The notes beneath the pieces are model-generated. The model had not been told where the DNA came from. It saw nothing but the letters and a program-made list of their open reading frames with translations, and made no database searches. A DNA stretch of 51,335 bases from Promethearchaeota archaeon Loki_b31. GTDB lineage: Archaea > Asgardarchaeota > Lokiarchaeia > Sigyniarchaeales > SOKP01. Position numbers and translations under genes: made by a program. Position 1 is the first letter of the stretch; each line of letters starts with the position of its first letter. The DNA is taken from assembly GCA_005222975.1 (NCBI GenBank), contig NJBI01000020.1, positions 1 through 51,335 on the forward strand, written 5' to 3'. This document shows positions 3,346 to 51,335 of this stretch, piece after piece.

Positions 3346-4172
3346 TATTTGAAAGATATTTCATTTATCGCAATGATACTGAAGAAAATTTGAAAAAAGT
3401 AGCAGAGCTTTATCGATGGTTTTTTAAAAGTTTTTTACCTCCATTTTTAGCAGAGAGTAAATTAAAACTTTTTCGACCACGATTACCTGTTGATGCTAAG
3501 GAAAAATTAATTGAAATTGATGAATCTCTTGATATTGAGTCTCAAATCCTTCCTTATGAATTAGTATCTCAATTAATCGATAATTATGATATGTTTACAT
3601 ATATTCCATGTCAATGTCGTTTAATAGCTGAATATACAGGAGAACCATGTGAGGTAGCTCCAGCAGAAATGGGGTGCTTTTTAGCGGGAGAAGGAGCGAG
3701 ATCTGCAATAGAAGGAGGATTTCCGAATCTTAATAAAGAAGAAGCTATAGAATACTTAAGAAAAACTGAAAAAGCGGGATTAATCCATAGTTGTGTAGCA
3801 GATAGCAGTATTGAATCTACTTTATTCATATGTAATTGTTGTAGTTGCCATTGTGGGGCGTTAGTAGCAGCAAAAGAACATAAATACTATGCGACCATAG
3901 CATCCAATTATGTGCCTAAAATAAACAATGAACTCTGTACTAAATGCGAAATTTGTCTAAATAAATGCCCAATGGGTGTTATTTATCATAAACTTCCTAA
4001 CGAACCAGATTCTTCTGATGAACACATGTTTATAAATGAAGAATATTGTTTAGGATGTGGAGTTTGTGCAAGTAATTGCCCAAATAATGCAATTAAACTA
4101 GTAAAAGTCAGAGATAATATTCCTACAGAAAAATATAAAATTGGTACAAAAACATTTTCAGAACTAGTGTAA
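3339..4172 (+). CDS. 4Fe-4S dicluster ferredoxin-domain protein, probably 5'-truncated
   Basis: CQC, CNCCSCHC and two CxxCxxCxxxCP motifs. The frame extends upstream to PGIFERYF at 3339 and closes at TAG 3324-3326 without an ATG. Confidence 0.8.
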   Translation, partial: PGIFERYFIYRNDTEENLKKVAELYRWFFKSFLPPFLAESKLKLFRPRLPVDAKEKLIEIDESLDIESQILPYELVSQLIDNYDMFTYIPCQCRLIAEYTGEPCEVAPAEMGCFLAGEGARSAIEGGFPNLNKEEAIEYLRKTEKAGLIHSCVADSSIESTLFICNCCSCHCGALVAAKEHKYYATIASNYVPKINNELCTKCEICLNKCPMGVIYHKLPNEPDSSDEHMFINEEYCLGCGVCASNCPNNAIKLVKVRDNIPTEKYKIGTKTFSELV

Positions 4173-4734
4173 GTTAAAATACTGCATTTTTACTTTTTAT
4201 ATTTTTAATTCTTAAAAATTGAAACTTCTTAATTAATTAAAAAGAATTTAAGAGATTTAATAATAAATTTAAAAGAATTAAAGGATTAAATCACTTTCTT
4301 TGATATAAACTAATCTTATAAGTTAATTTGATCAAAAAAGAAAAATTAAAAACAAGAATTAAGGAAATAAGGGATAAAAAACTTTTAAGTTGTGAGTTTT
4401 TGATCATTTTTTACCAACATTTTTTGGTATTTTTATAACTTTTTCCTTACAATTATTTAACAATAGTGCGGAAAAAATCGGAAAAAATCTCGAAAATGTC
4501 AATTTTCAATCGTTTTTAAATCCTCAAAGTTAATAAAAGGGATTTTTTTCCCCCAAAAAATAAGGATTCCTTTTTCAATCGTTATATGTTCAGAAAAAGT
4601 CAAATTTTCAAAGATTCGCCCGATCTCGTATAATGGGCTAAGGAAAATTTCCCATTATATTTATATACTAATTTGTTCTTAAAGTAATTAATAATAAAAA
4701 AATAAATATAAAACAAACTCGGAGTGAAAAAAAT

Positions 4735-5073
4735 ATGGAAATAATAAACCTTCAAGAAAAAGTTTTAGACCTTTCTGACGAACAGCTAAAAAGTATTTAT
4801 TTAGCAGCTAGTAGAATAAGTCAAGATAGTATTGAGGAATTAACTCCTATCCTGTTAAGAGTATGCTTAAACTGCGAAACAGGAGTTTTAAAGGATGAGC
4901 TCGGGCGAGTTATCTTTCATTTACAGAAGACAGAGAGGTTAGATACTCGAATTGGTCTTGAAAAGCTTTTACATGGAGCTTTAAAAGTGAACGCTAAAGA
5001 AGTATTTAAGCTTCTTGAATCTAGTGCGCCAGATGCTAAAGATTTATTAGAAAGAATAAAATCAATTTTATAA
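4735..5073 (+). CDS. Hypothetical alpha-helical protein
   Basis: 112-aa ORF with GGAGTGA SD-like sequence and a TTTATATA box upstream. Confidence 0.7.
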   Translation: MEIINLQEKVLDLSDEQLKSIYLAASRISQDSIEELTPILLRVCLNCETGVLKDELGRVIFHLQKTERLDTRIGLEKLLHGALKVNAKEVFKLLESSAPDAKDLLERIKSIL

Positions 5074-5112
5074 GAAAAAACTTTTTTTTACTAATCTTAT
5101 TTTATTTTAATA

Positions 5113-5391
5113 ATGTCAAATAATAATCAATCTGATTTAGATAAAGCTTGGGAGCATTACGTGAAAATACGAGACGCTCTTATGGGTTTATACGAAATCT
5201 TGGATTTGAATTTGGAAAAGGACAATATTTTTTACCAATGTGCGATCGACAACTTAGAAAATTTAAAAGACACAATTATCGACTTATTAAAAAAGGATTA
5301 TAATCCCTCCGAAATCACGCTAAAATTGAGAGATCTAGAATTTTCTATGAAAAAAGAGCTTTTTTTTGAAAAAAAAGAAAAACAAAAATAA
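5113..5391 (+). CDS. Hypothetical helical protein
   Basis: 92-aa ORF co-oriented with the previous gene; typical composition. Confidence 0.65.
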   Translation: MSNNNQSDLDKAWEHYVKIRDALMGLYEILDLNLEKDNIFYQCAIDNLENLKDTIIDLLKKDYNPSEITLKLRDLEFSMKKELFFEKKEKQK

Positions 5392-5583
5392 ATCGTTATA
5401 GAGAAAGAGTATTTAGATTAATCTCAAGTTTATTTTTGACAATTTTGTATTATGTTTTAATAGTGCAATATATCACATTCAATTTTATTTATAAAGGTGG
5501 TTGAGCTAGTTTATATTATTATTTTTAAAATTTATCTAAAATTAAAATTTAAAAAAATTAAATATTAATAAAGTGAATGTGAA

Positions 5584-6288
5584 ATGCTTATTTTAGAAGG
5601 ATGGATCGATGGTATAACTGCGTCCGGAGTCGTTATTTTTGGCATTATTTTTGGCATATTCTTCTTATATAAATCGCGAAAATCTGGTGCTAGGATTTTA
5701 ACAATTTTAGGGATAGTAAATATTTTAGCGGGACTTATGTATTTAGGGGTTTTTACGGATTTTTTGGTGGTTCTTATGACGGAAACCAATTTGGATAACA
5801 CCTACGGTTTGGTGGGAATATTGAGTTACATCTGGTTCGCCCCCATAATCATACTCGCGATTTATATCGGTGCTGAACTCTTAGTACCTAAGAAAAAGTG
5901 GTACTTTATGATATTAATTATTATTTTAAGCGCTATATTTGAAGTTTTTTTCATCTTAGATCCACTGGGCACTTTTAATTTCGTTGATCCAGTAAATCCA
6001 GGAGAGACATTAATTGATTATAATGTTAACATGTTTACCCCAGCAGGTATTATTATGGCTGTTTTATTATTAACCGTTTTAATAATTCTTGGCTTTGGGT
6101 TCTTAATAAAAAGCATTAAGTCTAGTGGTGTATTAAGGAAAAGGTTTTTTCTCTTATCTATGGGGTCTATATGCTTCTGTATATTCGGATTATTGGAAGG
6201 GTTAACTGCTCCAGGCTTGATGGTAATTTTTGTTAGAATCGGATATTTAACTAGTTTTTGGCTAATGTATTTCGGGCTAAAAACTTAA
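5584..6288 (+). CDS. Hypothetical 7-TM membrane protein
   Basis: Seven hydrophobic segments in 234 aa; no soluble output domain. Confidence 0.75.
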   Translation: MLILEGWIDGITASGVVIFGIIFGIFFLYKSRKSGARILTILGIVNILAGLMYLGVFTDFLVVLMTETNLDNTYGLVGILSYIWFAPIIILAIYIGAELLVPKKKWYFMILIIILSAIFEVFFILDPLGTFNFVDPVNPGETLIDYNVNMFTPAGIIMAVLLLTVLIILGFGFLIKSIKSSGVLRKRFFLLSMGSICFCIFGLLEGLTAPGLMVIFVRIGYLTSFWLMYFGLKT

Positions 6289-30990: not shown

Positions 30991-32167
30991 TTTTGAATAA
31001 AACCATCTCCGACTACTTTTCTGAGGATATTTAACGCTCCATTTACATCTGCATTGAGAAGATAATTCGAACCTCTAAATAATCCTCGTTTTGTCCGTTT
31101 ACCAACGTAATTTTTACGTTTTTGAATCGGTTCTAAATCCAACGAGCTACATTTTGAAGTATAGGACTCATTGACTTCGTGAATTTGAATTCCTACAAGT
31201 TGAGCTTTATAAGTTATCATTTGTTTAAGCTTTTGAATGGGGATATTCACGAAATTTTGGTTATTTCGTTTGCCCATTCTGATATTCTGTTTTATATTTT
31301 TCAAATTACCTAAACAAATATGTCCTATTTGGTTTTCTAAGCAATAACCTATGAGAAATTGAGCTGTTTTATGTAAATAATCGGTAATAACTGAATTTCG
31401 ATTAATAGTAATACTTTCGAGCCTATTTGTCCGCTTTAGGTTCTGTTTGTCTTTAATAGAATTAAGCCTTGCTTTCTGTTTGTTCCATTGTCGGTTAATA
31501 GACTTTAAAACTCTTCCTGAAACGATAATCGGTTTTTCGTTTCTATTTTCTACCGTTGTTATTAAATTATTTAATCCAAAATCAATAGATAAGTACGAGC
31601 TATAGTTTAATTCTGCTTTCTCTACCTTTCTTTTATATACTCTTCGATTTCGTAGAATTTTTTTCTCGGTAAGATCCTTATTTGCTGATAACATTCAAAA
31701 TTCTTGTTTCTATAGTGAGGTATTGTAATTTCTATTGGATGTTCAAATTCAGGAAATGCTTTCTTAAAAAACTTAGACATCGTAAGAATGATTTTATTGT
31801 TCGTAATTTTACTATTCTGATTCGTAAAGATCAAGAGATTATAACCGTCTTTCTTATATTTAGGTGGTCTCGGTCTTCCATTGAATTTTTCTTGACCCTT
31901 TTTCCATTCTTTTATTGCATTGAAGAAACTTTTCCAATTCCTATCGATGATTTTAAGAATCTGTTGCGAAGTTTGAGCTTTTAATAATTTGTAGTTATTA
32001 GAGTGTTGCAAAATAAAATTTAAATCTTGATAGCGAAGCAAATTTTCCAAATGAAAAAAATCTTGTCGTACGTACCAATTTGCCTGATTATAGAGCTTTT
32101 TAGAAATAATACAAAGCAAATCTAACTGAGCACTTTTAGGATGTCTAAACCTATAAGTTAATTTCAC
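30891..32167 (-). pseudogene. tnpB: TnpB RNA-guided endonuclease (solo, IS200/IS605/IS607-type) with a 1-nt frameshift at about 31641
   Basis: N-half SKKLYNQA..AQTSQQ..WKSFF..PRPPKYK..QIRILP; C-half SIDFGLNNL, DYLHK, NESYTSKCS, NADVNGALNI. Junction reads GAA-GA-GTA-TAT. Confidence 0.9.
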
Positions 32168-45004: not shown

Positions 45005-46327
45005 TTATTTTAATTCTACTTTTGCTCCTAAGTTTTTAATATCTTCAATAAAATTTGGATAAGAATCCTTCACAATTTCGATATCCACTATCTGAGAAAA
45101 GTCTTCAGCATATAAACACGCAACGGTAAACGCCATAGCAACTCTGTGATCGTTTTCGTGATTTATGTTAGCACCTTTTAAGTTATCACAATGATATATA
45201 GTAAGTTTATCTTCTTTTTCTTCTACTGCAACTCCCATTTTACCTAATTCTCTAGCAATTATTAATATTCTATCGCTTTCTTTATCTCTTAGACTTAAAG
45301 CATTATATAATTCAGTCTTACCATTAGCAAATGCGCCAATAATTGATAATATGGGGAATAAGTCGGGATTTTCGCGGATATCAATGTCCAAACCAATTAA
45401 TGGATATTTTTTTAGATTGCCATTAACAGTAATAGAATTTTTTTCTCGGTTAACTTCGATATTTGCTCCCATCTCTTGTAAAATCTTAATTATTTTTTGA
45501 TCCCCTTGAGGTTTGTCAAAATTAAGATTGGTTATAATGATCTTAGAGTCTTCGGGAGACAGTATAGCCGCAGCTATAATAAAAGAAATTGAAGAAAAAT
45601 CACCAGGTATTTCGTAAGTTTGGGCTCTATATTTCTGCCCACATGTGATTAAGTATTTACCAACTTTCAGTTCGTCTAAACTTTCTTGAATGTTAATTCC
45701 AAATGAGTTTAAAACATCTAAGGTTATATTTATATATGGATAGGAAATAAGAGGAGATGTAATTTCAACTGTAATAAGATCAGTTTCTTTACAAATTAAC
45801 AATGGGCACACCATCAATAGAGCTGAAACAAACTGAGAACTAATATCTCCTTGAATTTCTATTGTACTACATTTTTTACTTTTTCGCTTGATAGTTAATG
45901 TCTCTTCAGTTAAGTCGTAGCTACCGCCAATATTTTCCAAAGCATTTAATAATGGAAGAAGTGGTCTCTTTCTTTTAATAAATTCACCCGAAAAAGAAAG
46001 ACCCCCTTTAATCATCATAGCTAACGCGCTAAATATCCTAATAGAAGTGCCTGAATTTTTGCAGTCGAATAATGGATTAATTTGTTTAATTAAACCTTCA
46101 TATTTCTTAACTATGTATGTATTTTTTGATACTTTCGTAATTCTATGGCCCAAAGACTTTAAAAAATCTATAGTAACCTTAACATCACCAGAAGTTAAAG
46201 GGTTTTTAATTATTGATACTCCTTCAGCAAGGCTCGCAGCTATAAAAGCACGATGAGAATAGCTTTTAGAAGGTGGCGCAATAATTTCACCTTGAAGTCT
46301 CGTTGTAGGGGATATTCGAAGTTTCAT
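45005..46327 (-). CDS. aroA: 3-phosphoshikimate 1-carboxyvinyltransferase
   Basis: PPSKSYSHR, NSGTSIR, SSQFVSALL, PGDFSS, RDKESDR, DHRVAMA, SYPNF. Confidence 0.96.
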   Translation of the reverse strand: MKLRISPTTRLQGEIIAPPSKSYSHRAFIAASLAEGVSIIKNPLTSGDVKVTIDFLKSLGHRITKVSKNTYIVKKYEGLIKQINPLFDCKNSGTSIRIFSALAMMIKGGLSFSGEFIKRKRPLLPLLNALENIGGSYDLTEETLTIKRKSKKCSTIEIQGDISSQFVSALLMVCPLLICKETDLITVEITSPLISYPYINITLDVLNSFGINIQESLDELKVGKYLITCGQKYRAQTYEIPGDFSSISFIIAAAILSPEDSKIIITNLNFDKPQGDQKIIKILQEMGANIEVNREKNSITVNGNLKKYPLIGLDIDIRENPDLFPILSIIGAFANGKTELYNALSLRDKESDRILIIARELGKMGVAVEEKEDKLTIYHCDNLKGANINHENDHRVAMAFTVACLYAEDFSQIVDIEIVKDSYPNFIEDIKNLGAKVELK

Positions 46328-46366
46328 TTGGGATATTTCAACATTTAAAACTATTAGTTATAACTT

Positions 46367-46484
46367 CATTTTTTTGAAAGGTGTACTCCTTTTAGAGCTC
46401 TAACCGAAGTAAAGACCCATTATTTTTAAAATTTTATATTGCTGCTATTTTTTAGGGGTCCAACTTTGAGGAATCTTGTCAAAT
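46367..46484 (-). ncRNA. Putative TnpB omegaRNA scaffold, distal copy B
   Basis: Homologous to 46517-46644, including a non-coding echo of the tnpB 3' coding end. The 55-nt core differs at 2 positions. Confidence 0.65.
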
Positions 46485-46516
46485 TATTAAAAAAATAAAA
46501 GAAAACCTCGATTATG

Positions 46517-46644
46517 CATTTTTTTGAAAGGTGCACTCCTTTTAGAGCTCTAACCGAAGTAAAGAGCCATTTATTTGTTTATTTTACGTTACTGCTATTC
46601 TTTCTGGTGGAATAAGCATCCAAATTTGAGGAATATTGTCAAAT
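46517..46644 (-). ncRNA. Putative TnpB omegaRNA scaffold, proximal copy A (overlaps tnpB 3' end)
   Basis: Minus-strand hairpins GCUCU-UU-AC-UUCG-GU-U-AGAGC and AAAGG-AGUGCA-CCUUU directly after the tnpB stop. Confidence 0.65.
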
Positions 46645-47411
46645 AACGATTGTGCTCCCTTTCTTCCGATGTTAAAAGCACCATTAATATCTGAATGAAT
46701 GTATTTTTTAGATTTATACGAATAAAATTGACCGTAATGCATATGAGACTTTCCGTCTTTTCCTTGAATAGAGGGGTTTCGAACTCCATCGTAGTTTAAA
46801 TGAAATTCAATCGATTCCTTATCGAGAGCTGAACATTTTGAAGTATAACTCTCCTCCTGAACGATAACATCAATTCCGAGCAAAATTGCTTTATATTTAA
46901 TAGATTCAATTAATTTATAAAATGGAAGGGGGATAAATCTACGATTGACGGCTTTATTTAGTTTTGAACGAGTTTTCCAACCTTCGTTGTATCCTATTAT
47001 GATTGTTCCAACATTTTTTTTTTTACATAAATCGATTACGTAACGAGACATTTTATGGGTGGCGTCTCTGGTTTTATTTCTGTAAATTTTAAACAATCCA
47101 TCCAAAATCGTCTGGTTTTTTCGTTGTAAGTCTTTTACGAGTTGAAAGTGCGTGTTCTCAAGTTCTTTTTTTAAATCGTTTTCCAGATCTTTACAAATAT
47201 CTTGTTTTCTATTAAGTTCCCTTTTCTCGTAGAAAAGATAATCTTTAATCGTTTCTATATCAGACAATTTTTTTAAATAATTAAACAAACTTTTTAGCTT
47301 TTTATTTTCACCATATTTATTCTTAAATTGATTATACGTCATTGTAGGGTTATTCAATACAATATCAGCCACATTTTTTTTCCATTGGAAGTTTTTAAGA
47401 TATTTTTGAGA
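46584..47411 (-). pseudogene. tnpB: TnpB-family endonuclease, 5'-truncated, with a long helical insertion
   Basis: RDATHKMSRYVID, IIIGYNEGWK, YKAILLGI, EESYTSKCSALD, HSDINGAFNI. The frame opens at 47411 and has no RuvC-I D motif. Confidence 0.88.
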
Positions 47412-47424
47412 TTAATTAAAAGAA

Positions 47425-47925
47425 GTGATTATCATAACCATCATAACAATTTTATACTTACCTGAAGGATTAGTACTAGGATCAGATACTCAATCGACTA
47501 TATTTGTTAAAGGCAATCCCGTCAATTCATTTAAAAACAGTCAGAAAATTTTCAATATCTCAATTGAAAACGGTAAATATAATTATGCGTTATCTCAATC
47601 TGGAAATGCAATACCTGGAATAAAACCTTTGATTACTCACATATATTCAATTAGAGAATTGTTATCTCTTAACGGGTATTCTGATGATGTTTTTAAATCA
47701 ATAGACAAAGTTTCAGACAAAATAATTGAATACTTTAAAAAATTCAAAAAAGCTGATCTCTTTGGTCTTTTTTTCTATTTTAGTGGTTTCGATTATGAAG
47801 ATAACAAAATTATTCCATGTGTTTATTCTATTAAATTTTTTAAAGATAAAAATGGAGAATTAGAAGTTAAAAAGAAGCTCGTAGCAAGACCGGAGGAAAG
47901 AAAGAATTTAAGAATTAGTAATTAA
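47425..47925 (+). CDS. Putative Ntn-hydrolase (proteasome-beta/HslV-like fold) protein
   Basis: N-terminal TIITIL..PEGLVLGSDTQST..QKIF..SG pattern and later FYFSGFD..P.VY resemble beta-subunit strands. Inference only. Confidence 0.5.
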   Translation: MIIITIITILYLPEGLVLGSDTQSTIFVKGNPVNSFKNSQKIFNISIENGKYNYALSQSGNAIPGIKPLITHIYSIRELLSLNGYSDDVFKSIDKVSDKIIEYFKKFKKADLFGLFFYFSGFDYEDNKIIPCVYSIKFFKDKNGELEVKKKLVARPEERKNLRISN

Positions 47926-48760
47926 CAGATTCTCTCTGAGCTAGGAAGAATAATCCATAAGAATTACCAAGTGATGGGAATTTTATTTTTATTTTAATTG
48001 GTATTTTAGAATTGATGAAAAATTTTAATTTTGGGCTAGTTCCAAATAAAAAATGTTTTAAGATTATTATATTATTAATTGAAAAGTAAGATTTCACCTT
48101 TTCTATATCAGAATTGTTATTTAACAATGTTAGTTCTTCAATATTCCATTTAATTTCTCCATTCGAAATATGATTATTCTCTTTAAAAATAATGGCCGTA
48201 TTTGATAAATCCAAACATATTGATTTTGAAAATCGTTCTAATTGAGTTATTAAATAAATAAATTTTTCTTTTTCTAATTCAAATTTACCCACATATGTTA
48301 GGTTAATTAATTTGTCTAGGATATCTTCGTTTTCTATGAAAAAATCTACTTTTTTAAAATTCCGTAAGATTAGAGATTTATATACTTTTGATTCTAATTT
48401 TATTTGTATCTCATCCTTTTTAAAATATAAACTAGTAATATTTTTATCATTTTTATTGCATTTCAATAATTTTACGAATTCCTCCAAATTAATTGTCAAT
48501 TTTAATGAAGAATTATAAATAAAATATGATGAATCAACTCTAAAAAGAACTCTCATTAAATGGGTTTTCCGATTATTTAATACATATACTTCTAAATTGT
48601 CGGTATTAATTTTAATATAAGCTAGTGAATTAATTCTTAGTAAAGCTTCAAAAATTTTATAAAATAAATATCCATCATTAAAAATTGCTTCACAATGTGT
48701 GTGTTTAATTTTATTATGTTTTAATTTTTCATTATTAAATCTATTCCAGTCAAAACTCAA
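47915..48760 (-). CDS. Divergent PCNA-like sliding clamp
   Basis: EAIFNDGYLFYKIFEAL..HLMRVLF..TINLEEFVKLLK..RNF..PIKIKI..GLFFLAQR parallels the PCNA pattern (INL..L.K.LK, terminal LAPR); similar length. Confidence 0.65.
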   Translation of the reverse strand: MSFDWNRFNNEKLKHNKIKHTHCEAIFNDGYLFYKIFEALLRINSLAYIKINTDNLEVYVLNNRKTHLMRVLFRVDSSYFIYNSSLKLTINLEEFVKLLKCNKNDKNITSLYFKKDEIQIKLESKVYKSLILRNFKKVDFFIENEDILDKLINLTYVGKFELEKEKFIYLITQLERFSKSICLDLSNTAIIFKENNHISNGEIKWNIEELTLLNNNSDIEKVKSYFSINNIIILKHFLFGTSPKLKFFINSKIPIKIKIKFPSLGNSYGLFFLAQRESVNY

Positions 48761-48887
48761 AATTATCCCTTTAATTTCAAATATTTAATCCATGCTATAT
48801 ACTTCAATAAAAATTATTAAAACTAATAGAAGAAATTAATTCATTTAAAAAATAATAAGATAGCAGTGAATTGGGCTTGAAATGTAA

Positions 48888-50444
48888 TCAACTTTGATTT
48901 TCTTCAAAATCAGTTAAGGACTTTTGAGATTTTTTAATGGGATTATTTATTTTGTCAACTATTCTATTTAATTCTTTAATATTAAATTTATGAGGATTTT
49001 TCATTATCTTTTTATAAATTTTATTTAAAATAGAATCTTCAGAGGGAATTTTAGGAAATTGTAAATCTAAAGTCGTTTTTATGGCACTAGTCATCTTCCG
49101 AAAATAATCTAATTCATCATCATTGTGTCTTAATTCATGATATAATCGATTCTTTTTTGGGGTTCTTGGATTTATATAGATTTTTGTAGATAACCATTGT
49201 TTAAGTTGTTTTTTGCCTCCTATTTCAAAATTCCAGATTTCTTCTGTAATACCTCCTAACCAAAAAGTCTTTTCTGGATCTCTAACTGAAGGTTTTTTAA
49301 AGTACATTCGTTCTTCATTAGGATCATAATAAATCTTCCTTAATTTTCTATTTTCAACATCATTTGCTAATTCATTATACGGGCAATCGGAAAATCTAAT
49401 TTCCTTTGATTTTAATAAATGTAATTCAATAAGTTTCATTCCAAGTTCTGACATTTCTAGAAAAGTCCCCTTATCATTAGGAAAAGGAATTCTTGGAAAA
49501 TCTTTTTTAAGAAAAACCTTAAAGTTTTCTCGATATTGTGGAACATATAAAAGACCATAAATATAGTTAAAAATCTCTCTATTTTCTACATCATAAGGGA
49601 GTAATTTTTTAAAATCTTCATTAATATTAGTATTTTTGGCAGGTTTAATCAGCCCAAACTCATTAGGGGCATCAGAAGTATTTATTTTTAATGGAAACAC
49701 ACAAGTCCCTGATCCTGTTGAGCTGGTTGCTCCCTTATGTTCAACAAATTTATCAGAAATAATTGCTATATTGCTATCTCCAATATGTTGAATTCCTCTA
49801 TCGACACAGATAGCTAAATTATCTTGTTCAGGATATAAATATTGCATTATTTTGAATTGTTCAGTGCCATTCTTCAGTAACGGCTGGTAATAAGAAAAGT
49901 ATCTTTGATCAAAACCTCGATATACCCATTTATAAATTGATTTCAAGGAATCTTTTATGTTTCCTTTAAGTGCGTCACTTATCTTCCAGTCTCGATTGTC
50001 ATTAAAGTTTATTTCTTTATCTTTATATTGCAATCCCTTTTCTCTTTGTTTCTTACGGTTAACGTAAAAGAAATCTACTAGATTTTCTGAATATTCTCCA
50101 TTATAAAAGTTTTTTATAATATTTGTTAATCTTTCTTTATCGGGATGAGAAACTAAAGTATCTTGTCCTGTAACAATCCCTACAGAATTCATTCTAAATA
50201 TTTCAATCATTCCCGCAAAAGAATTATATAGCTCTTGAAATTCTTCTGTATACATAGGAGGAGTAAACTCATGATCTAATCTTTCTCCAACATCTATAAA
50301 ATCTATTGAAGAAATATCATTTTCCCTCAAGTTTTGGAATTTCTTTTGCCGGCTCCCCCATATCTCATAATATTTTATTTTACAATTATGTTTATCTTCC
50401 TTTTTATTTTCATTATGTTCGTTTTCAGAATATCTAATAAAAAA
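48888..50444 (-). pseudogene. Type ISP / Type IIG restriction-modification enzyme, C-terminal (specificity) part; 5' end cut by an IS
   Basis: GIVTGQD, YRGFD.R, FNYIYGLLY.P.YRE.F..LKKDFPRIPF, L.ELHL, IWNFEIGG..L.QWL. Frame extends to ~50444 (FFIRYS..CKIKYYEIWGSRQKK), next to the IS end. Confidence 0.85.
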
Positions 50445-50446
50445 TC

Positions 50447-51322
50447 GTAAGTACTAAGTTTTTTGATCTTTAATTATCTTTTTCTAACCATAACATTTAT
50501 ATCTTCTAGTACATTCGTTATAGGATGGGTCTATGGCGCTTATTCTCAATTCTCGTCGTCAGAACACTCTTTCTCAGGCATTATATGTTCCGACAAAAAG
50601 GGAAAAAGTACGAGCGCGTGATTAAGAGTCAAGAGGCCCAATTAAAAGCTAAAGATTTGGAACTCTAAGAAAAGGATTACACCTTTAAAAATGAGATAGA
50701 ACAACTGAAAAAGGAGAAAGATACCCTTGAAGCGAAATATCTCAAGAAACTCAAGTTAGCGGATGTAAAAAAGAAAAACCTTGCTATGTATCGACGCAAG
50801 ATGAAAACTCTCCGAAAAATCCAAGAGGTTAACTAAAGAAGAAGCGGAGGAGCGATTGAGAGAGCTCGTCCTTAAATTGCGGGAGGAAGGCGTGATTGAG
50901 ACGGATTTAGAAAAGTTCTTGAAGCGATATGAACAATACGAAAAAAAGTTATTTACCTACTTGAAATACGAGGGCGTGCCCCCCGATTACAACGAGGCAG
51001 AACGAGAATTCCGCCCTTTCGTCGTCCAGCGGAAGCGTTCGGGCGGGTTCAAGAGTCCCGAGGTCATGCGGCACTACGTCGGTTACCTGTCGTTGTACAT
51101 GACATGTAAAGTAAACGGAAAAGATTTCGATAAATTGCTCGATTTGATCTTTTCCTGCCAAAAGATCGATTTAGGTTCGTTTTTGTCCTACTAAGGACAA
51201 TTTTCTCCAATTTTATAGCGTTGTTCGATTCTTACCTCAAAATTTAGGCAAATACGGTGAAAATTTTCTATGAAATCAGAACATTTTTAACAGATAGAAT
51301 GATCAAAAAACTTAGTACTTAA
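50447..51322 (+). mobile_element. Short non-autonomous IS66-family derivative (~876 bp) with terminal inverted repeats
   Basis: Left GTAAGTACTAAGTTTTTTGATC (50447-50468), right GATCAAAAAACTTAGTACTTAA (51301-51322), 21/22 match. GTAA start is typical of IS66. Confidence 0.88.
50856..51194 (+). pseudogene. IS66 transposase (TnpC) C-terminal fragment
   Basis: VPPDYNEAEREFRPFVVQRKRSGGFKS..SLYMTCK.NG matches the IS66 NNxAERxxR..RK motif; higher GC than flanks. Confidence 0.85.
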
Positions 51323-51335
51323 AAATTCATTAATG

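Follow-up and report, generated by a model that had tools for sequence, protein, structure and literature searches.

The tandem repeat located upstream of aroA in this genome consists, with a probability of roughly 0.83, of the decayed remains of two related copies of a TnpB-family element, that is, of ordinary transposon debris and not of a working guide array. The window, i.e. the whole stretch of 51,335 nucleotides that was analysed, is contig C57 of a 3.5-Mb MAG with a completeness of 92%. On its minus strand, upstream of aroA, the 3′ end of a tnpB gene together with two hairpins is present twice (copy A and copy B). An earlier sequence-only reading of the window had taken the two stretches that follow these copies as guides (guide A and guide B). 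The features of the locus are as follows.

45005..46327, minus strand: aroA (EPSP synthase; Pfam EPSP_synthase, E = 2.9e-99), the native gene downstream of the remnants.
46328..46359, minus strand: native aroA-upstream flank, probably the promoter, with TTTTAAAT; it makes up most of guide B and is 32/32 identical to G138 and G021.
46360..46366, minus strand: AAGTTAT (GTTAT motif), equal to the 7 nt that precede the insertion site of element A in relatives.
46367..46482, minus strand: copy B, probably the terminal ~116 nt of an older element of the family, comprising the tnpB 3′ end and two hairpins without the terminal CAT (covariance model 115 bits).
46483..46513, minus strand: native aroA-upstream DNA, 31 nt, T-rich; it makes up most of guide A and the spacer.
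46514..46646 (46646..46514 on the minus strand), minus strand: copy A, the right end of element A, comprising the tnpB 3′ end, hairpin 1, hairpin 2, an A-run and the terminal TGCAT (covariance model 143 bits).
46584..47372, minus strand: truncated tnpB ORF of 262 aa (Pfam Cas12f1-like_TNB, E = 2.5e-8); homology to the family reaches ~47420.
47421..51335, no strand assigned: strain-specific accessory DNA with a 166-aa ORF, a PCNA-like gene and a Type ISP restriction-enzyme C-terminal domain; it cuts off the 5′ part of element A.

The repeat is composed of an 87-nt block (46367-46453 versus 46517-46603; 86% identity, spacing 150) and a 26-nt block (46459-46484 versus 46619-46644; 92% identity, spacing 160), and the difference in spacing shows that copy B is short by 10 nt between the two blocks. 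The 55-nt 3′ core is identical at 53 of 55 positions, and the E-value of 1e-27 obtained with BLAST for copy A versus copy B excludes a chance match. The minus-strand direct repeat, the hairpin core with two differences and the loss of about 10 nt in copy B had all been described in this form by the sequence-only reading. It had also named the parts correctly, namely the tnpB 3′ end with a structured right-end region (the expected omegaRNA scaffold), present twice and with differing downstream sequence. Its statement that both copies end alike and then diverge holds as well, as both read ...CCTTTCAAAAAAATG and differ from there on; the end position needed to be corrected. In the ten other copies of the family the right end is 3 nt longer and extends to GCAT, so that element A ends at 46514, its flank begins at 46513 and copy B is without the end. 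The scaffold repeat is confined to one locus in the whole genome, and the pair of copies A and B is the sole adjacent double match of the covariance model in the 135 genomes of the taxonomic family. An Rfam scan of 45800-47600 revealed no relevant family.

The tnpB gene of the window is, as far as can be judged from its sequence, a dead C-terminal fragment. Its ORF covers only positions 224-389 of the 389 positions of the NCBIfam guided_TnpB profile and shares 79% identity with aa 556-839 of P0001, a homologue of 839 aa in which the RuvC-I motif SIDLGVNN is located at aa 484, upstream of the break of the window ORF. Two thirds of the length are lost, including the WED/REC parts and RuvC-I. With these parts and one catalytic motif missing the gene would be dead, and the locus is predicted to have no RNA-guided nuclease activity. 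A second copy of the family was not detected in this 92%-complete genome at E ≤ 1e-30, nor were further scaffold matches, and the TnpB paralogues of the genome show at most 50% identity over ~110 aa, the scaffold being absent from all of them. As the MAG is incomplete, an intact family copy could be unassembled. The window also contains a second, unrelated TnpB-type frame (31011-31475, minus strand), a 267-aa open frame with 36% identity to the tnpB fragment, which has three paralogues of ~405 aa on contigs C91, C74 and C28.

The DNA that adjoins the tnpB fragment on its upstream side is accessory. No counterpart of 47380-49000 was found upstream of aroA in the relatives, and within the genus this stretch was matched in one other genome only (G146, 73% identity over 433 nt); the 166-aa ORF could not be assigned to a family. 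In its place the relatives contain 1.5 kb of other DNA. Synteny with them is regained at the end of contig C75, and the contig break thus falls inside a variable island.

The interpretation of the repeat relies on a comparison of 11 copies of the element family, which were collected by genus-wide DNA and protein searches, 18-mer scans and a covariance model. The exact scan used an invariant 18-mer of hairpin 1 and covered the GTDB species representatives and JGI metagenomes. The covariance model, which was based on nine copies, was applied to 135 genomes of the taxonomic family. The right end was used as the query, and the sampling is consequently biased toward right-end stumps. An intact element of ~2.74 kb was identified in the same genus (G009:C414, L028:3584-6324). 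It shows no target duplication when compared with the empty site, and its ORF (3736-6255) encodes P0001. This protein matches Pfam Cas12f1-like_TNB and OrfB_IS605 as well as NCBIfam guided_TnpB and TIGR01766, the guided_TnpB score of 71.5 bits being under the cut-off of 100 bits. Its N-terminus is extended by ~230 aa, and the motifs of RuvC-I (aa 484) and of the RuvC-II region (aa 703) are separated by ~215 aa. A CxxC zinc finger is not visible in P0001, and an EE beside YTSK may represent a shifted catalytic Glu. The best PDB match of the protein is weak (E = 0.007, a deactivated Cas12f), and no tnpA gene is located beside the intact G009 copy. Based on these sequence features, the family seems to represent a lineage of large TnpB proteins in Promethearchaeota that has not been described before.

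The right end of the family is sharply defined, as 10 of the 11 copies end with GCAT and diverge immediately thereafter, the exception being copy B (...ATG). The two hairpins are 96.5% paired across nine aligned copies and include two compensated pairs. At all nine other family loci found in the 135 genomes, the GTDB species representatives and the JGI metagenomes, a single scaffold is present; the longer arrays that the sequence-only reading had suggested looking for with a covariance model were not encountered. The family inserts 3′ of a (T/A)TAT motif without target duplication and has the right end TGCAT. An ATAT-type motif (ATAT or GTTAT) lies just 5′ of the insertion in comparison to the empty sites of G009:C414, G139:C236, G138:C48 and G138:C56, and a target duplication is absent from all four comparisons.

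Truncated and solo copies start at element positions 870, 1849, 2306, 2352, 2636, 2653 and 2687, and the remnant in G001 starts between about 2680 and 2710. Most copies are therefore 5′-truncated at differing points, and right-end stumps are usual for this family. A reading of copy B as a defined mobile mini-unit was rejected on the grounds of these different start positions. Orphan right-end stumps of 76-121 nt without a gene were found at L085 (G001:C253), L105 (G132:C125) and L106 (G004:C275), two of which follow a host gene immediately after its stop codon. The G132 stump carries an insertion in hairpin 1, and the G004 stump is a divergent variant that still ends with TGCAT. A further peculiarity was observed at G138:C56 (L091) in comparison to G000:C59 (L142): the right end is followed by 24 nt of native flank, after which 87 nt of native DNA are missing. 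The gap lies between two 9-nt direct repeats (TTATTATTT) and represents a microhomology deletion whose start is approximately one guide length away from the element end; this may be coincidental, or the deletion may be the scar of a cleavage event.

The origin of the two putative guides becomes apparent from relatives that contain neither scaffold copy. The aroA gene shows 95-97% nucleotide identity and conserved synteny in G017, G021, G138, G009 and G139, with a difference of 4-10% at four-fold sites, and both copies are absent from these five genomes. In G017, G021, G138 and G009 the empty site is unbroken and reads AAGTTAT, 9 nt (A-run, TA), AAGTTAT, a T-rich stretch of ~30-31 nt, a 32-nt stretch and ATG. 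The 32-nt stretch holds the TTTTAAAT box and is located directly before the ATG of aroA. Its counterpart in the window (46328..46359) shows one to three differences from G017, G009, G139 and G005, and synteny with the relatives stops at 46360/46361. Directly after the TGCAT end of element A follows the T-rich native stretch (46513..46483), the first 23 nt of which are identical to the sequence after GTTAT in G138, G021 and G017 (22/23 in G009); beyond these 23 nt it aligns to the relatives with small indels. In G139 the element is absent and the T-rich flank contains a deletion, and in G005 (94% identical) the match begins with the promoter flank, the sequence upstream of it being diverged. 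Since both stretches are consecutive in the element-free genomes G138, G021, G017 and G009, the two guides are native DNA. A spacer that matches plain pre-insertion chromosomal sequence had been named by the sequence-only reading as evidence against its own proposal, and this is the arrangement found in the four relatives. These alignments place the insertion of element A directly after the second GTTAT upstream of aroA.

Neither flank occurs elsewhere in the genome at two or fewer mismatches over 20 nt, which extends to the whole genome the earlier statement that no guide match exists elsewhere in the window. A search of IMG/VR with exact 18-mers of the two flanks gave 3 and 7 matches, respectively. 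This is the chance level, and none of the matches was preceded by the motif or situated in a related context. One match of 24 nt (L123) lies in unrelated T-rich sequence. Foreign DNA targets of the flanks, which the sequence-only reading had suggested looking for among viruses, were rejected on this basis.

Copy B is both degenerate and of mixed kinship. At columns that are invariant in the other eight aligned copies it carries 10 private changes, compared to one in copy A and 18 in the G001 stump. Pair 88-106 of hairpin 1 is broken by a G-G mismatch that is unique to copy B, and the 10-nt deletion is accompanied by the loss of the terminal CAT, which is present in 10/10 other copies. Of 123 aligned sites, 20 (16%) distinguish copies A and B. 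The distance of copy A from the copies of other genomes is equally large, and the divergence of aroA from relatives without either copy is smaller, at 4-10% of four-fold sites. The linker of copy B is identical at 21/21 positions to that of G138:C48 and differs from the linker of copy A at 6/21, and the linker of copy A matches the metagenome copy Ga0209345. The two linkers belong to different sublineages. Between hairpin 2 and the right end (~38 nt, with a run of 7 A), copies A and B have a variant that is common to these two only and differs between them at one position. This shared end indicates common descent or gene conversion between neighbours, and copy B could also be a local copy of A. 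The mosaic of A and B could accordingly reflect gene conversion between neighbours.

The junctions of copy B constrain how the arrangement may have formed. Its left edge (46482) is positioned between GTTAT and TTGACAAG inside the family tnpB, i.e. at the same motif as the insertion site of element A. Directly after copy B follows AAGTTAT (46366..46360), which together with the preceding A-run matches the native stretch between the two GTTAT motifs of the relatives at 15 of 16 nt; the chance of finding the 7-mer AAGTTAT at a fixed place is ~3e-4 at 31% GC. The left edge at an internal GTTAT and the AAGTTAT on the other side show that copy B is not the insertion of a free fragment. The T-rich flank, which natively separates AAGTTAT from the promoter stretch, is absent there and sits between copies A and B instead.

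We infer the order and the chemistry of the rearrangement from these junctions. The parent element of copy B would have resided at the first GTTAT, 16 nt upstream of the motif used by A, and copy B would be the last ~116 nt of this older sibling. Element A would have inserted after the GTTAT motif upstream of aroA, and A together with 31 nt of flank would then have been cut out and pasted after the GTTAT inside the 3′ end of the tnpB gene of B. Alternatively, recombination and a microhomology deletion could have led to the same outcome. The move of A would have left the native flank between the scaffolds and a joint of GTTAT and promoter to the right of B. Slippage between two A-runs would have deleted 12 nt and with them the tip of the right end of B, and the left two thirds of element A would later have been lost to the strain-specific island or by a deletion. 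This genome no longer contains the left junction of the putative nest, which has been deleted, and the proposed right cut, after AAT, corresponds neither to the TGCAT end nor to a (T/A)TAT motif. It may also be speculated that the locus is the fossil of a natural scaffold-guide-scaffold origin, in which a TnpB element moved with a right flank of guide length (31 nt) through a read-through cut and landed at a TAM-like motif in a sibling; we regard this more specific reading as rather doubtful. Abortive homing repair, in which a break in the flank is followed by partial copying from an occupied allele and end joining, was rejected: it predicts a second 31-nt flank after copy B, which is not seen. 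The solo fragment in G132 likewise shows no flanking duplication of the kind predicted by this model.

The arrangement could, in principle, be a working two-guide omegaRNA mini-array, in which both units are transcribed and loaded in trans onto an unassembled full-length nuclease of the family and thereby address two targets. The near-identical hairpin cores (53/55), the differing sequence after each copy and the T-tract after the first flank are in line with this possibility, as is the completeness of the genome of only 92%. It has moreover been proposed that the duplication of omegaRNA segments gives rise to arrays, and rare omegaRNA-like arrays with long repeats have been reported (Altae-Tran et al. 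2023, PMC10691335). Nevertheless, we consider such an array highly improbable. An intact nuclease is absent in cis, and none of the family was found in trans. Both flanks are DNA native to the locus, and the sequence after copy B has no proper partner site in the empty alleles. Copy B is without the invariant end and has a broken stem and a 10-nt deletion, each of the nine other family loci contains a single scaffold, and the IMG/VR matches are at chance level and without the motif. Four marks of an array were looked for, namely repeats that are intact, spacers of non-local origin, an effector in cis or in trans and a recurrence of the layout in relatives, and none of the four was found. What the family does show are the marks of a TnpB transposon: a TnpB-type protein, a structured 3′ region with a sharp boundary and TAM-like insertion without duplication (five empty sites). 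The proposal of a scaffold-guide-scaffold-guide array serving one nuclease is therefore not supported in view of the dead tnpB fragment, the native flanks, the lack of arrays in the family and the degenerate copy B. The evidence favours what the sequence-only reading had mentioned as its alternative, a repeated insertion next to an older element end.

A different explanation would dispense with a second element. Template switching at microhomologies, as an error of replication or repair, might have generated copy B in place as a local, non-functional copy of the right end of A, after which both copies would have drifted. The main point in its favour is the variant from hairpin 2 to the end with its 7-A run, which is exclusive to A and B. 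The two copies are also adjacent and in the same orientation, microhomologies are present at all three junctions (TAA/ATAA, an 8-nt A-run plus T, and AT), and the AAGTTAT after copy B is locus-specific, which argues that the joint was formed in place. However, a tandem duplication would have repeated the flank, and the flanks are unrelated, their identity of ~40% being the level expected at 31% GC; a simple 150-nt tandem duplication was rejected for the same reason. The linkers also speak against a local origin, as that of B agrees completely with a copy in another genome and deviates from that of A, which itself matches a different copy, and the 16% divergence between A and B is higher than the four-fold divergence from relatives that lack both. 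We therefore regard a local copy as unlikely and prefer the remains of two related elements.

The locus illustrates that tandem TnpB right ends can resemble proto-arrays and should be interpreted with caution, and that empty sites in close relatives can reveal nested or repeated insertions. As a by-product, a large (839-aa) TnpB-like family of Promethearchaeota gains a defined right end (TGCAT), a (T/A)TAT motif and a two-hairpin model of the right-end RNA. The position of the T-rich stretch suggests that an element can carry along a piece of flank of guide length, which is relevant to the question of how guide arrays start. If such flank-carrying moves recur with an intact nuclease, they would offer a concrete route to the omegaRNA duplications from which type V CRISPR arrays have been proposed to originate.

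TranC systems are reportedly intermediates between TnpB and Cas12 (10.1101/2025.09.28.678669). Like omegaRNA-like long-repeat arrays and TnpB-to-Cas12 intermediates, the locus presents the order scaffold-flank-scaffold-flank downstream of a TnpB-type gene. It differs from the arrays in that an intact effector is lacking, the spacers are local and native, the second repeat is degenerate and the layout is not conserved in relatives.

The closest correspondence is with TnpB elements of the IS200/IS605 type with an omegaRNA (reRNA), such as ISDra2, in which the flank next to the TAM serves as the guide (Karvelis et al. 2021, PMC8612924; Meers et al. 2023, PMC10055086). The family shares with them a RuvC protein of the TnpB type, a conserved and structured non-coding region with a sharp boundary and an overlap with the 3′ end of the gene, insertion 3′ of a short motif without target duplication, so that the flank is the post-motif sequence of the empty site, and decay into right-end remnants without a gene. 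In contrast to these elements, the protein of the family, known here from its sequence, comprises 839 aa, i.e. approximately twice the usual size, with an N-terminal extension and no visible CxxC; tnpA is absent beside the one intact copy, and P0001 scores under the NCBIfam TnpB cut-off.

With nested or repeated tnpB insertions and solo right ends (PATE-like remnants) the locus has in common the tandem right ends, one on a longer element and one consisting of the right end only, as well as copies of different sublineages in a short intergenic region. A more distant tandem was observed at G050:C2, where two direct repeats of 73 nt (L037:3521-3685; 85% identity, 19 nt apart) lie behind a large, intact TnpB-like ORF of 814 aa (L037:1081-3525; 32% identity to P0001). 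The sister copy G050:C132 in the same genome has one repeat, and all three repeats end with GGAC. An empty site for the G050:C2 tandem was not found, as the locus is absent from all relatives, and the tandem probably reflects nesting. Unlike in plain nesting, the two right ends upstream of aroA are separated by 31 nt of native flank that is missing from its native place, and this displaced flank points to an extra step beyond nesting, either read-through mobilisation or recombination together with a deletion.
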